Origin: a virus
Taxonomy: Duplodnaviria > Caudoviricetes
IMG/VR virus record: IMGVR_UViG_3300047375_000738
Strand: one strand, 5' to 3'
Length of the DNA: 64,000 bases
This document shows positions 3,142-13,595 of this stretch, piece after piece. The notes beneath the pieces are model-generated. The model was not told the DNA's origin and did not search any database. It was given only the letters and a program-made list of their open reading frames with translations. The translations under genes were made by a program, and so were the position numbers. Position 1 is the first letter of the stretch. Every line of letters starts with the position of its first letter.

Positions 3142-3665
3142 ATATACTGATCAAACATTGACTTGCTAATGTGATCCATTGATGCTTGCCATACACTACC
3201 TGCTTTTGTATCCCATATTAGTCTAGGAGGCAGGTCAGTTACTAGCCATGCTTTGTCTACTTTAATTTCTTTCTCAAGCTGCCCAGGTGACCATTGTGTT
3301 AATCCTGCACAAATTTTAAAGGCATCTGGACGTTGTTGACTTACAAGTTTTTCAAACATCAAATCATCACTAGAGATATTTACACCCTTGTCAAGAAACA
3401 GTGTATTAGAACTGACAAAGTCTTCTGTGTGCATCATCATTATACTCATAGGATTTACAGGTCCACCTATGTGTATTGGATCAATGTTGTTTGGATAGTT
3501 GATGCCGTGTTGTTGAAGTAAATCGCTAAGATACTTTCCACTCATTCGATTGATCACTAGACCTGTTGCACCTGCAGGTGTTTCTTCAAATATAAAAACT
3601 ACTGTGTTGTTAAAGAATCCTTTGAGAGTAGGTGATGATACTAGGAACTTTCCTGTGCGTTTCAA
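3138..3665 (-). CDS. YqgE/AlgH (DUF179) family protein
   Basis: FLVSSP..FNNTVVFI..GATGLVINR..IGGPV..AGLTQWSPGQLEKEI..AWL. Confidence 0.85.
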   Translation of the reverse strand: MKRTGKFLVSSPTLKGFFNNTVVFIFEETPAGATGLVINRMSGKYLSDLLQQHGINYPNNIDPIHIGGPVNPMSIMMMHTEDFVSSNTLFLDKGVNISSDDLMFEKLVSQQRPDAFKICAGLTQWSPGQLEKEIKVDKAWLVTDLPPRLIWDTKAGSVWQASMDHISKSMFDQYI

Positions 3666-8052: not shown

Positions 8053-8192
8053 TGGTTTAATATTAAACTATATTTTCTAACTAGTTTAGTATTAAACTAT
8101 CTCGAGGCAGGTAGTTTAACATTAAACCATTTTGGCGAGAAGGTTTAGTATTAAACCATTTTGAGACCAGGAGATAGTTTAACGTTAAACCA
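8053..8192. repeat. Five tandem 18-bp palindromes WRGTTTAR-NN-TTAAACYA
   Basis: GTTTA(A/G)NNTTAAAC cores at 8055, 8084, 8114, 8143, 8177. Confidence 0.9.
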
Positions 8193-8248
8193 TAGGTTCA
8201 GAGCTCCGTGCCCTCCCGTACGGTACATTCTTTCCCGGCCTCACATAT

Positions 8249-8758: not shown

Positions 8759-9103
8759 ATGTTTTACATTTACGAAAAATCAAGTACTTATATTATGGGA
8801 TACAAAAACGGCAAAGTTCGTCCGGATCACCGCAAGAGCTATAAGACTATGGCTAGTGCTAGAGCAGCATTAACCAAGTGGAGCCATCAGTGGTGGCGTG
8901 AAGAAGGTATCAACGGCGACAGTGCAAACAACAATCCTCACTTCCGTTATGGCATCGCAAGGGCCAACTACTTCCACGACACTATTGAGAAGAAGCGTAC
9001 AGTGTACAGCATCTTTGATGAGGCTAAGGAAAACCCAATCACTGAGACTGTGAACACTCCAGGTTACATGTCGCCCAGCAGAGAATCTTATTGGAGCATG
9101 TAA
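8759..9103 (+). CDS. Early hypothetical protein
   Basis: ATG after GAGGGC; ends NTPGYMSPSRESYWSM. Confidence 0.7.
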   Translation: MFYIYEKSSTYIMGYKNGKVRPDHRKSYKTMASARAALTKWSHQWWREEGINGDSANNNPHFRYGIARANYFHDTIEKKRTVYSIFDEAKENPITETVNTPGYMSPSRESYWSM

Positions 9104-10452: not shown

Positions 10453-10490
10453 ATATGTATAGGGCAACACAGTAAGAGGGAACTTACAAA

Positions 10491-10701: not shown

Positions 10702-10947
10702 ATGAAACTTAATGCAAGAGAACTTCAGAAGCTAATGGGTCTTCTACGCAATGTAGCAGAAGTTGATCCAGAAGATGTGATCTCCAACTGTGCATCGCAG
10801 CTGGCGTATGAACTTGAAACTGTTAAGGTGCCATTCGACACCAACACAATGAACGAGAAGCGCCAAGAGCTTGTTCGTTATGCTATCGGAAAAAGAAACA
10901 AATATCGGTTGACACCCGGCGCTCGTCATGCTATAGTAGTAGAGTAA
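10702..10947 (+). CDS. Early hypothetical protein
   Basis: AGGAG SD. Confidence 0.65.
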   Translation: MKLNARELQKLMGLLRNVAEVDPEDVISNCASQLAYELETVKVPFDTNTMNEKRQELVRYAIGKRNKYRLTPGARHAIVVE

Positions 10948-10966
10948 TAAGGGCAAAGAGGGTAAT

Positions 10967-11309: not shown

Positions 11310-11393
11310 GCTCGCATGGTGGAATGGTAGACACTACAGACTTAAAATCTGTTGCCGCAAGGCGTCCCGGTTCGAATCCGGGTGCGAGTACCA
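11310..11393 (+). tRNA. tRNA-Leu (anticodon TAA)
   Basis: Acceptor GCTCGCA/TGCGAGT, anticodon arm ACAGA-CTTAAAA-TCTGT, long variable arm, GGTTCGAATCC, encoded CCA. Confidence 0.95.
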
Positions 11394-11405
11394 AATACTT
11401 CTGCT

Positions 11406-11482
11406 GGTCTCTTAGCTCAGCTGGATAGAGCAAGTGCCTTCTAAGCACTAGGTCGCAGGTTCGAATCCTGCAGAGATCGCCA
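11406..11482 (+). tRNA. tRNA-Arg (anticodon TCT)
   Basis: Acceptor GGTCTCT/AGAGATC, arm AGTGC-CTTCTAA-GCACT, GGTTCGAATCC, encoded CCA. Confidence 0.95.
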
Positions 11483-11531: not shown

Positions 11532-11566
11532 ATATGTATAGGGCAAACAGACAAGGGCTAAAGATT

Positions 11567-11884
11567 ATGAAATTTGTTATCTCAACACAGTACTTAGAAA
11601 ACTATGGCGCACACTGTGAGGACGGTAAGTTCTCCAGCGGTAATGCATACTGGAAGATGAAGGGCGGCACTGATTACATCGTGTCCGACTTAGAGCGTGT
11701 TCAGGATGCGATTGCATTCGTAATGGCCAAGTTCGGCACTAATGATATCTCCCAGAAGGAGTATCCAGTAGCGTTCCGCAGCTATGATGAGTGGGAGACA
11801 GAGTTGGACAAGGAGAGCGTTGAATATGCTGACTTCATTAGGTCAACAGCCAAAGATGTGTCACCACTAGAGGAGGCGATATAA
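11567..11884 (+). CDS. Conserved phage hypothetical protein
   Basis: MKFVISTQYLENYGAH..YWKMKGGTDYIV; AAGGGC leader. Confidence 0.7.
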   Translation: MKFVISTQYLENYGAHCEDGKFSSGNAYWKMKGGTDYIVSDLERVQDAIAFVMAKFGTNDISQKEYPVAFRSYDEWETELDKESVEYADFIRSTAKDVSPLEEAI

Positions 11885-12049: not shown

Positions 12050-12078
12050 TTGACAAGCGAATGACTATGTCGTATAGT
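12050..12078 (+). promoter_or_regulatory. Early promoter P6
   Basis: TTGACA-17-TATAGT, preceded by TGTCG. Confidence 0.85.
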
Positions 12079-12108
12079 ATACGTAACAAAACAACTTATG
12101 AGGGTAAG

Positions 12109-13110
12109 ATGAACGTTAGATTCAACAGTGGCTATTTTAGCTTTAAGGGTAGAAACATCGAAGTGGCAGATAAAGTACTTCCATTATCACAAGGATTCAA
12201 GATAGGTGTTCGCGGCGGCTACGTAACAGTAGACGGTAGTGCAGTGTCTGGTTATCCAGATCGCAATATCAAAGTCTATGTAGACAGTGAGCAAGACTTC
12301 GTTGAAGTTGATGACTCCGTAGCCGTCGCTGCTCCTGAAGACGAGAGTGATGCTGCAATTGTAGAACGCTTGCGCAAACGTTTTAACATGCTAGGCGACA
12401 TGACTAAGGCAGTCAAGAAGGGTGATGTACGTGCAATGATCGTAAGTGGCCCTCCAGGTGTAGGCAAGTCGCATGGTGTTGAAGAAGTACTAGACCGCTA
12501 CAAGACTCTAGAAGCCTTAGGAGGTACACGCAAGTATGAAGTGATCAAAGGTGCTATGTCACCTATTGGATTGTACTGCAAGCTCTATGGCATGGCAGAC
12601 AAAGGTAACGTTGTGGTATTTGATGACTGTGACAGCATCTTCCAAGACGATCTAAGCCTTAACATTCTAAAAGCTGCACTAGACAGCAAGGGTCGTAGAA
12701 TGATCCATTGGAACACTGATTCATTCAAGCTGCGCAACGAAGGTGTGCCAGACTCGTTTGAGTTTAAAGCATCTGCTATCTTTATTACCAACATGAAGTT
12801 TGACAAAGTCAAAGGCAAGCTAAAGGAGCACCTAGAAGCACTAGAGTCACGTTGCCACTATATGGACCTTACAATTGACACAGACCGTGACAAGATGCTG
12901 CGTATCAAGCAGGTTGTGATGGACGGTATGCTCAATGCATACAAGCTAGATCAAGAGATCAAGGACGAGATCGTAGACTTCGTTGATATTAATAAGAACC
13001 GACTACGTGAGCTGTCATTGCGTACAGTGCTCAAGGTAGCGGATCTAGCAGTGGCATTCCCAGACGATTGGGAAGCCTTTGCAGAGAATACGGTGATGCG
13101 TCGAGCATAG
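12109..13110 (+). CDS. AAA+ ATPase with N-terminal extra domain
   Basis: Walker A GPPGVGKS, Walker B VVVFDDCD, sensor FITN, ALESRC arginine finger. Confidence 0.85.
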   Translation: MNVRFNSGYFSFKGRNIEVADKVLPLSQGFKIGVRGGYVTVDGSAVSGYPDRNIKVYVDSEQDFVEVDDSVAVAAPEDESDAAIVERLRKRFNMLGDMTKAVKKGDVRAMIVSGPPGVGKSHGVEEVLDRYKTLEALGGTRKYEVIKGAMSPIGLYCKLYGMADKGNVVVFDDCDSIFQDDLSLNILKAALDSKGRRMIHWNTDSFKLRNEGVPDSFEFKASAIFITNMKFDKVKGKLKEHLEALESRCHYMDLTIDTDRDKMLRIKQVVMDGMLNAYKLDQEIKDEIVDFVDINKNRLRELSLRTVLKVADLAVAFPDDWEAFAENTVMRRA

Positions 13111-13130
13111 AGCTCCGCACATCGTACAAA

Positions 13131-13237
13131 CGCTGCTAAAGGTGCCCTCCCTTAGCAGCACATAGGAAGCAATGCAATGCCCTCACGCTGCGCTTCCAAC
13201 CATGTAGCAGCAGGACCGCCCTCATCCTGCTGCTACA
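13131..13237. ncRNA. Putative structured RNA: three hairpins, each with a GCCCTC (+) / GAGGGC (-) loop
   Basis: H1 13131-13160, H2 13165-13197, H3 13203-13237 (perfect 13-bp stem). Confidence 0.7.
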
Positions 13238-13255
13238 ATTCTTTTAAAATAGTGG

Positions 13256-13284
13256 TTGACAACTGAGTATTCTCATGCTATATT
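13256..13284 (+). promoter_or_regulatory. Early promoter P7
   Basis: TTGACA-17-TATATT. Confidence 0.85.
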
Positions 13285-13316
13285 ATATGTATAGTTAGAC
13301 ACAACGGAGGGCTCCA

Positions 13317-13595
13317 ATGGCATACTACACTCACACAAAGGATCCAGTTGGTGCATTCCAAGAGAAGGACACTGGCAACTGGTTTGAATGGAGCATCAAC
13401 AACGATGTGCTCAATAACATCAACGAAGACTTTCCACACAAGGTTTGGACTGGTGGTGCAGGCGTGTGTGGCGATCAAGGATATCGTTATGCTCACGTGA
13501 TGAAGACTCGTGTGGTAGTGTGTGTAGACGAAGACGAGTTTGGTCTTCCTGTAGTAGAGAAATGGTATACCAAGAAACATAATATTTATGGTTGA
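13317..13595 (+). CDS. Conserved phage hypothetical protein
   Basis: GGA-GGGC-TCC leader; GYRYAHVMKTRVVVCVDEDEFGLPVVEKW. Confidence 0.7.
   Translation: MAYYTHTKDPVGAFQEKDTGNWFEWSINNDVLNNINEDFPHKVWTGGAGVCGDQGYRYAHVMKTRVVVCVDEDEFGLPVVEKWYTKKHNIYG

Follow-up and report, generated by a model that had tools for sequence, protein, structure and literature searches.

What is the function of a run of hairpins that display the same C-rich motif in their loops, lie directly behind an early phage gene, and are complementary to the leaders of the early genes around them? The question is raised by positions 13089–13249 of a 64,000-nucleotide (nt) stretch of DNA, hereafter the window, which belongs to the minus strand of the 98.5-kb IMG/VR virus record IMGVR_UViG_3300047375_000738. 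The record is a fragment of a jumbo myovirus genome, because its CheckV completeness is only 27%; among cultured phages its nearest relative is Pseudomonas phage PA5oct, with 53% identity in the terminase. A previous sequence-only reading of the window noticed three hairpins at this locus and offered two models: in model A the plus-strand RNA pairs with the early leaders, and in model B the minus-strand RNA is the functional one and sequesters a factor that binds them. The comparative data support the plus-strand model A. Judged by sequence comparison, the element is a conserved, structured plus-strand RNA that constitutes the 3′ untranslated region (3′UTR) of the messenger RNA (mRNA) of an early NrdC.10-like ATPase, from a hairpin H0 through hairpins H1–H3 to the terminator. 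The balance of the evidence tips slightly towards this RNA acting in trans, as an anti-leader RNA that would occlude early ribosome-binding sites, including that of the ATPase itself.

The element is composed of four hairpins and a tail:

about 13089–13127, plus strand: hairpin H0, across the stop codon of the ATPase gene; fold of −21.8 kcal/mol
13131–13160, plus strand: hairpin H1, a 12-pair stem with two A-C mismatches and the apical loop UGCCCU; GCCCUC at 13144–13149
13165–13197, plus strand: hairpin H2, outer stem GGAAGC/GCUUCC; loop with GCCCUCAC at 13179–13184
13203–13237, plus strand: hairpin H3, the last one, a perfect 13-bp stem with the loop CCGCCCUCA (13218–13223)
13238–13249, plus strand: U-rich tail AUUCUUUUAAAA, directly after H3

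H1–H3 had been described in the sequence-only reading with these stems and with GCCCUC at each apex, and both the sequence and RNAfold bear this out; H0 is an addition. Folding of positions 13111–13260 recovered the three hairpins at −53.1 kcal/mol (z = −5.07), and none of 200 shuffled sequences was as stable. GCCCTC occurs at 13144, 13179 and 13218, and three copies within 107 nt compare with about 0.01 expected by chance. The whole 98.5-kb record contains only six plus-strand GCCCTC sites, three of them in the element and one in a hairpin loop at 8206–8223. Because of the z-score of the fold and the scarcity of the motif, the three-hairpin GCCCUC cluster is real and beyond chance. The GCCCTC at 12449 was excluded from the element, as it encodes the GPPG of the ATPase's Walker-A motif and relatives retain it as coding sequence.

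The loop of H2 is of the 'GCCCUCACGCU' flavour, which is conserved among relatives. H3 is the probable terminator stem: a G+C-rich hairpin followed by a U-run, the mark of an intrinsic terminator, is found only at the last hairpin, and H0–H2 are without a U-run. The terminator tail of the window is weak (AUUCUUUU after H3), whereas most relatives have a clean run of 6–9 U. No Rfam family matched the element in cmscan: the whole window at the gathering score and 13050–13320 at E-values up to 10 gave only transfer RNAs (tRNAs) and chance microRNA-like hits. A nucleotide search of a phage collection gave no match, and a literature search found no paper describing the element.

The ATPase transcription unit is part of an early island at 8.3–15.5 kb, in which all genes are on the plus strand and a promoter scan found 12 near-consensus TTGACA-N17-TATAnT promoters. 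The features of the island that concern the element are:

12050–12078, plus strand: early sigma-70-type promoter TTGACA-N17-TATAGT (11 of 12 matches in the scan), from which the ATPase mRNA, and with it the hairpin element, is transcribed
12100–12105, plus strand: leader motif GAGGGU of the ATPase mRNA itself, 3 nt before ATG 12109
12109–13110, plus strand: NrdC.10-like AAA ATPase gene (Pfam AAA_16; tblastn to T4-type nrdC.10 and PA5oct gp126)
13256–13284, plus strand: next early promoter from the scan (P7 of the sequence-only reading)
13307–13312, plus strand: leader motif GAGGGC of the downstream gene, with its ATG at 13317
8388, 8748, 9163, 10476, 10958, 11553, 12100, 13307, 13642, 14046, 14663 and 15158, plus strand: the 12 early-leader motifs, from inspection of the leaders

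The stop codon TAG of the ATPase gene is at 13108–13110, and the promoter scan saw no internal promoter in the last 150 nt of its open reading frame (ORF). The true start is probably ATG 12109, 3 nt past GAGGGU, and not ATG 12061 of the longest ORF, because the latter falls inside the promoter; the ORF listed from 11522 likewise probably starts at 11567.

All 12 promoter-proximal early leaders contain GAGGGC or a one-base variant of it, 3–9 nt before the ATG. GAGGGC follows six promoters (8748, 9163, 13307, 13642, 14046, 14663), as the sequence-only reading had claimed, but its total of 11 promoters with variants behind five has to be corrected to 12, with GAGGGA, GAGGGT or AAGGGC behind the six others. 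Genes inside early operons (9652, 10702, 11884, 13869) have the canonical GGAGG or AGGAG, and the minus-strand (late) genes have an ordinary (U)AGGAG. Because the internal early genes and the minus-strand genes use these canonical sites, GAGGGC is a private tag of primary early leaders and not the general Shine–Dalgarno (SD) sequence of the host. The tag belongs to the promoter-leader cassette, since the internal operon genes are canonical and every promoter-proximal gene has GAGGG(C/A/U). In three early leaders, a second AGGGCA lies near the transcript 5′ end (10455–10465, 10940–10950, 11535–11545), besides the copy at the SD site.

Pairing energies were calculated for compact helices and corrected for accessibility by unpaired probabilities. 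For the 12 early start regions, the predicted pairing with the element falls on the tag in every case and has a mean energy of −8.3 kcal/mol; for 71 other start regions the mean is −2.1 kcal/mol (Mann–Whitney p = 2e-8). The complementarity between the element and the 12 dispersed leaders extends over 5–10 nt. H1 is the best predicted partner of the leaders with GAGGGCA and GGAGGGCAUC. The ATPase's own leader is predicted to form an 8-bp pairing, AUGAGGGU/GCCCUCAU, with the loop of H3, and its GAGGGU is a poorer predicted match than most other leaders of the window.

Relatives were recruited by their ATPase (80 loci from IMG/VR, 80 from metagenomes and 80 more via a divergent member). Well over 100 distinct jumbo-phage contigs, from marine and fresh waters, share the conserved element. 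Marine clade A, in which ATPase identity goes down to ~62–70%, has 2–5 hairpins with GCCCUC loops after the ATPase stop codon. Clade B, made up of freshwater jumbo phages of up to 356 kb, has two hairpins with the 9-nt loop AUUCGCUCC, the second of which is the terminator. In clade C, UAGCUCCU is single-stranded and lies just 5′ of a hairpin and terminator. The leaders are of the type RAGGGC in clade A, GGAGCGA in clade B and AGGAGCUA in clade C, and in each of the clades the tag is present on the leader of the ATPase itself. The AGGAGCUA tag of clade C is essentially confined to this one leader, where it is complementary to the UAGCUCCU of the 3′UTR, over 10 nt in one sub-lineage.

Sorted by leader type, the loci give a diagonal matrix of leader class and loop motif. 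RAGGG[CT] is found in 333 of 456 class-A leaders, and all 77 distinct class-A downstream regions contain GCCCUY (3.16 per region), with anti-B motifs in two of them. Class B has GGAGCG[AC] in 152 of 228 leaders and (U/G)CGCUCC loops in 38 of 40 distinct regions (1.85 per region), with anti-A motifs in none. The loop motif changes with the leader motif across lineages, as model A predicted. The 3′ arm of H0 contains AGCUCCGC, which is complementary to GGAGC, and relatives show NGCUCCGC or GCCCUCACGCUCCGC at this place; AGCUCCGC would be a GGAGC-complementary remnant common to all clades. In the 356-kb genome G006 (96% complete), no clear loop-displayed anti-leader site was seen besides the two copies behind the ATPase, and at least three of eight other TTCGCUCC sites looked at are leaders of opposite-strand genes. 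Two further candidates for matched states were rejected. L005 is a divergent clade-A member with mixed leaders and is uninformative as a fourth motif state, and another loop variant, UUCGCUCUC, which would match leaders with GAGAGCGA, was not reproduced in five clade-B genomes, where its counts were near the control.

The conservation is that of an RNA structure with fixed loops. The 65 distinct downstream regions of clade A contain 221 GCCCUC sites, of which 182 are in apical loops. GUGCCCUC is the loop of 17 different stems, and CCGCCCUCA that of 22. In an alignment of 23 distinct H3-type hairpins (A1), 11 of 13 pairs have changes on both sides and the loop is invariant, which agrees with the expectation from model A of conserved loops on covarying stems. 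The covariation of A1 is 0.545, compared with 0.171 in shuffles (none of 500 reached the observed value) and at most 0.133 when the alignment was slid. Even at ATPase identities as low as ~62–70%, the bases of the loops stay the same, while the stems turn over. An ungapped alignment of clade B gave only a 3-bp inner stem in RNAalifold, with the outer stems out of register; folds of the individual sequences placed 57 of 94 sites in apical loops, on 49 different 5′ arms. The terminal hairpins of clade B have a conserved 5′ bulge RUAAR beside the inner stem at 33 of 96 sites. A 'GUAAG bulge' scaffold was rejected as a sign of homology between clades A and B, since the 33 of 96 sites in B compare with only 18 of 294 in A.

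The hairpins might be ordinary 3′-end structures, such as stabilisers, terminators or recombination cassettes of the promoter-early stem-loop (PeSL) type, with loops that have no sequence-specific role. The last hairpin is indeed a terminator, the early island is built of repeated promoter-leader cassettes, and solitary GCCCUC-loop terminators occur elsewhere (L086:1739 and L086:9033). However, this explanation does not predict loops that stay invariant while the stems turn over, a U-run restricted to the last hairpin, or a loop sequence that tracks the leader tag, and we regard it as improbable. Invariant loops on covarying stems are also the signature of hairpins that are recognised by a protein. 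The binder could be a boxB/N-type antiterminator, a protein that binds translational operators, or an RNA chaperone, encoded by phage or host, and the complementarity to the leaders would then be incidental. The RUAAR bulge of clade B, which leader pairing leaves unexplained, speaks for such a protein, but the incidental match would have had to arise separately for three motif pairs and again for the RNA of a hybrid lineage described below. No candidate protein was identified, and we give this alternative little credence.

The strand on which the element functions is indicated by imperfections of the stems. Isolated 1×1 stem mismatches in 60 distinct hairpins are of the G·U type in 20 cases and of the A·C type in three, which argues for selection on the plus-strand fold. 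H1 of the window is an exception to this pattern. Its two A-C mismatches would be G-U pairs on the minus strand, as the sequence-only reading had pointed out for model B, in which a minus-strand RNA would show GAGGGC loops as a CsrB/RsmZ-like decoy for a tag-binding factor. The minus strand folds well too (−63.5 kcal/mol, z = −4.21). The mismatch count and the polarity of promoters and terminators disfavour such a sponge: both the promoters and the U-run behind the last hairpin have plus-strand polarity, the motif of clade C is single-stranded and 5′ of a plus-strand terminator, and the promoter scan found no minus-strand promoter. In addition, many GGA loops on the transcribed strand characterise CsrB/RsmZ, whereas the plus-strand loops are C-rich here. 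Model B is therefore hardly credible.

The strongest single argument for action in trans on leaders, and not only in cis on the ATPase mRNA, is provided by the hybrid lineage G017/G018, in which no anti-leader sequence lies directly behind the ATPase and a separate ORF-less unit is present instead. In G017, the unit consists of a TTGACA-N17-TACAAT promoter and ~140 nt without a credible ORF, which fold into three hairpins; the second hairpin has the loop AUUCGCUCC, and the third, which is the terminator, has CCGCCCUC. The leaders of G017 are mixed as well: 11 have GGAGCGM, four have GAGGGC, and nine have UAGGGCAAA near the 5′ end. In these nine leaders, UAGGGCAAA is upstream of a GGAGCGA SD, an order that would allow antiparallel two-site binding by a two-loop RNA. 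The sister G018 has only GGAGCGA leaders and a unit with only the AUUCGCUCC loop. The promoter of the unit is strong in G017 and a weak match in G018, and the terminator is present in both. On the ATPase tree, G017/G018 branch between the basal B grade and clade A with moderate support, which suggests a path from B through the hybrid to A.

The main competitor of trans action is autoregulation in cis only, in which the 3′UTR loops of an ATPase mRNA would pair with the leader at its own 5′ end and the match to other leaders would be a by-product of the shared promoter-leader cassette. It would account for the tag on the ATPase's own leader in every clade, for clade C, where AGGAGCUA is essentially on that one leader and 8–10 nt are complementary to its own 3′UTR, and for PA5oct, where the gp126 leader has an 8-nt match to the 3′ arm of its 3′UTR hairpin. 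It does not account for the uncoupling of the anti-leader hairpins from the ATPase in the separate unit of G017/G018, nor for the second loop of G017, which matches the GAGGGC/UAGGGC tag carried by other leaders. The 2–5 loops per element exceed the need of one cis target, and in the window the GAGGGU of the ATPase is matched worse than most other leaders. We consider cis-only action unlikely.

Several observations weigh against the trans-acting anti-leader RNA. The RNA is co-transcribed with its targets from an early promoter, and a clean temporal switch would therefore need differential stability. The near-confinement of the clade-C tag to the ATPase leader fits cis autoregulation equally. 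On the ATPase tree, the co-variation amounts to ~2–3 independent switches (B to A via the hybrid, and B to C), not hundreds. The GAG/CUC core is generic to any anti-SD-like loop, so that the informative part is the 3–4 extension bases per clade. Fine-scale co-evolution is absent in clade A, where leaders match their own element over 6.24 nt and foreign elements over 6.23 nt. The element is also absent from L213–L257 and PA5oct: in L213–L257 (59–61% ATPase identity to L005) the next gene abuts the ATPase and there are no tagged leaders either, and PA5oct has just a 43-nt gap after the homologous gene. Four RNA runs lack a contig over 13116–13300, and RNA contigs may include DNA carry-over, so a stable RNA is not proven by contigs.

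The expression data consist of assembled contigs from RNA libraries, which show neither ends, strand nor level. The element is covered at low depth by contigs of four runs, each from a different study; one of these contigs extends from the ATPase ORF through all hairpins (12934–13294). Contigs from three RNA runs begin at 13298–13303, a little past the position where transcription from the 13256 promoter is predicted to start; these contig ends are consistent with, but no proof of, the start site of that promoter.

PA5oct (L082) has a short hairpin after gp126, the 3′ arm of which, AUGCUACU, is complementary to 8 nt of its own leader, AGUAGCAU (2175–2200 and 3350–3385). The match could be due to chance (about 0.04) or a remnant of own-leader pairing. 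RNA sequencing data exist for this cultured phage.

The statement of the sequence-only reading that no system of this form has been described was too strong, because cuckoo/CcsR RNAs and the c4 RNAs of phages P1 and P7 work alike. Cuckoo/CcsR is the closest mechanistic analogue, followed by P1/P7 c4 RNA and the UCCC-loop small RNAs (sRNAs) of S. aureus. The element belongs to none of these groups, because its loop motifs differ and no Rfam model matches. The cuckoo RNAs, CcsR1–4 of Rhodobacter sphaeroides and those of other Alphaproteobacteria, have tandem hairpins with CCUCCUCCC anti-SD loops (PMC8034643; PMC4615179). RNase E cuts the CcsR RNAs, which are multi-target regulators, from the ccaF1 3′UTR (PMC8034643). 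Both systems have tandem hairpins with anti-SD loops in the 3′UTR of an upstream protein gene, and the 3′UTR position and tandem hairpins of the RNase E-released CcsR type are thus present here. Unlike the cuckoo RNAs, which carry CCUCCUCCC in both loops, the window has the loops UGCCCU, GCCCUCAC and CCGCCCUCA, and its relatives have GCCCUC, AUUCGCUCC or UAGCUCCU. The element is phage-encoded and would target the phage's own early leaders via a private tag, not generic SD sequences of the host. The cuckoo/CcsR Rfam models had no match in the whole window or in 13050–13320.

The c4 antisense RNA of P1 and P7 (Citron & Schuster 1990, cited in PMC2864571) pairs through short exposed stretches with a ribosome-binding region on a nearby mRNA and masks it. 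The element likewise exposes short segments with complementarity to ribosome-binding sites in its own neighbourhood. Between P1 and P7, the c4 RNA and its target show matched changes, and matched changes between related phages are likewise seen here, in the diagonal matrix and, as a further matched state, in G017. The likeness is one of mechanism and not of sequence family, and cmscan gave no match to the c4 model RF01695. Whereas c4 is an RNA of ~77 nt with its own fold, which acts on one operon (icd-ant) in the immunity region of a temperate phage, the target here is shared by an entire class of leaders, 12 or more, in virulent-type jumbo phages. A further parallel is offered by S. aureus sRNAs with UCCC loops (the 3′ domain of RNAIII, RsaE and others; Geissmann et al. 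2009, cited in PMC2864571). They resemble the element in directing several C-rich hairpin loops against G-rich SD regions of many mRNAs, but are host-encoded and stand-alone and use a generic UCCC, with neither a private tag nor a phage context.

In S. aureus, the icaR 3′UTR is reported by Ruiz de los Mozos et al. in 2013 to pair, through an anti-SD motif, with the SD of the same mRNA. Own-leader complementarity is similarly present in all clades here, but icaR has a single cis target, whereas many leaders share the tag in these phages and the element can be a separate gene (G017). In the cis-encoded antisense pairs CopA/CopT and RNAI/RNAII, each partner is a structured loop and the complementarity is complete. 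Recognition through G/C-rich hairpin loops of 6–9 nt is common to them and the element. However, the CopA/CopT regulator is opposite and fully complementary to its target, whereas the element faces 12 dispersed leaders and would pair over 6–10 nt in trans with leaders that are mostly unstructured. The CopA/CopT-like kissing of loops proposed in the sequence-only reading is weak: the motif lies within flanking stems of at least 4 bp in 19% of clade-B leaders (6% in shuffles) and in 10% of clade-A leaders (4% in shuffles).

Phage T4 inactivates early mRNAs with the RegB endoribonuclease, which cuts GGAG, and the RegA repressor. As in that system, an early product would inactivate early mRNAs at the SD, its own mRNA included, but RegB and RegA are proteins, whereas the agent here would be an RNA. 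Arbiol et al. are said to have described, in 2010, the PeSL cassettes of T4-type phages as recombination modules. The early island resembles them in its repeated modules of early promoter and stem-loop between small early genes; we know of no report of loop-to-leader complementarity in PeSL cassettes.

Hairpins of the same type also occur apart from an ATPase gene. One is in the window, upstream of the first early promoter:

8206–8223, plus strand: solitary fourth hairpin with the loop GCCCUCCC, preceded by AGAGCUCCG and followed by UACAUUCUUU

Its fold alone is not significant (z = −0.67). The preceding AGAGCUCCG is the same nine bases that come after the ATPase stop codon, and the region 8199–8232 looks like a condensed copy of the element at 13109–13249. 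It ends a non-coding stretch that could be transcribed from 7703, where a TTGACA-N18-TATAGT promoter is located. The gene-free stretch before the early island contains, at 8100–8195, three or more copies of an ~18-bp palindrome-like unit (GTTTAAC-N-TTAAACCAT). The clade-A relative L086 has two other terminator-like hairpins with GCCCUC loops in its early region (1725–1775 and 9015–9060), and because of these two the anti-leader loops are not strictly confined to the ATPase 3′UTR.

Other features around the ATPase unit were noted. Genes for tRNA-Leu(UAA) and tRNA-Arg(UCU) are at 11310–11482, inside the early island and just upstream of the ATPase transcription unit. In clade B (L013–L029 and many others), a conserved G-rich and then AT-rich box (GGGGTCGGGGCATATACA-like), 20–90 nt past the terminator, replaces the TTGACA promoter; a phage-specific polymerase or sigma factor may use it as its promoter. 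In clade C (L030–L032, L074), the downstream gene starts 6–7 nt past the −10 box, just after the terminator, and its mRNA is apparently leaderless.

A mechanism of early shut-off by the anti-leader RNA can be proposed; we infer the pairing in vivo, the sign of the regulation and the processing from the observed structure, conservation, strand, complementarity and lineage co-variation. The active form of the RNA would be either the mRNA tail or a 3′UTR fragment processed from it. Its C-rich loops (GCCCUC and 1–3 flanking bases), as the Watson–Crick complement of the extended SD tag GAGGGC/A/U, would pair with 6–10 nt of the leader over the ribosome-binding site. The loop pairing may out-compete the 4-nt contact between the SD and 16S ribosomal RNA, and avidity may be provided by the several loops and by two-site leaders. 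Translation, and perhaps also stability, of the whole promoter-proximal early class would be lowered, and the outcome would be a self-limiting early shut-off.

Taken further, and more tentatively than the trans action itself, these phages may use a private translation code, in which an extended non-canonical SD tag on early mRNAs is read by a multi-loop anti-leader RNA that switches off or gates the class. Within such a code, the anti-leader RNA might possibly sit either in a 3′UTR or as a stand-alone gene. It is conceivable, though we would not yet favour it, that lock and key drifted together, from GGAGCGA/UUCGCUCC through the hybrid to GAGGGC/GCCCUC.

Textbook examples of control at the early-to-middle transition, such as T4 RegB and RegA, are proteins, and to our knowledge RNA-based control of this transition is barely documented in virulent phages. 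If the proposed reading is true, it would explain the private ribosome-binding tag on early leaders and would extend the anti-SD hairpin regulators, so far known from bacteria, by a branch in phages. The RNA/leader pairs would be naturally orthogonal and of use in synthetic biology. The hybrid lineage would be a rare snapshot of a regulator and its many targets changing specificity without losing control. The drift of lock and key would create orthogonal regulons, and the RNA could also act against a superinfecting relative with the same tag by silencing its early genes.

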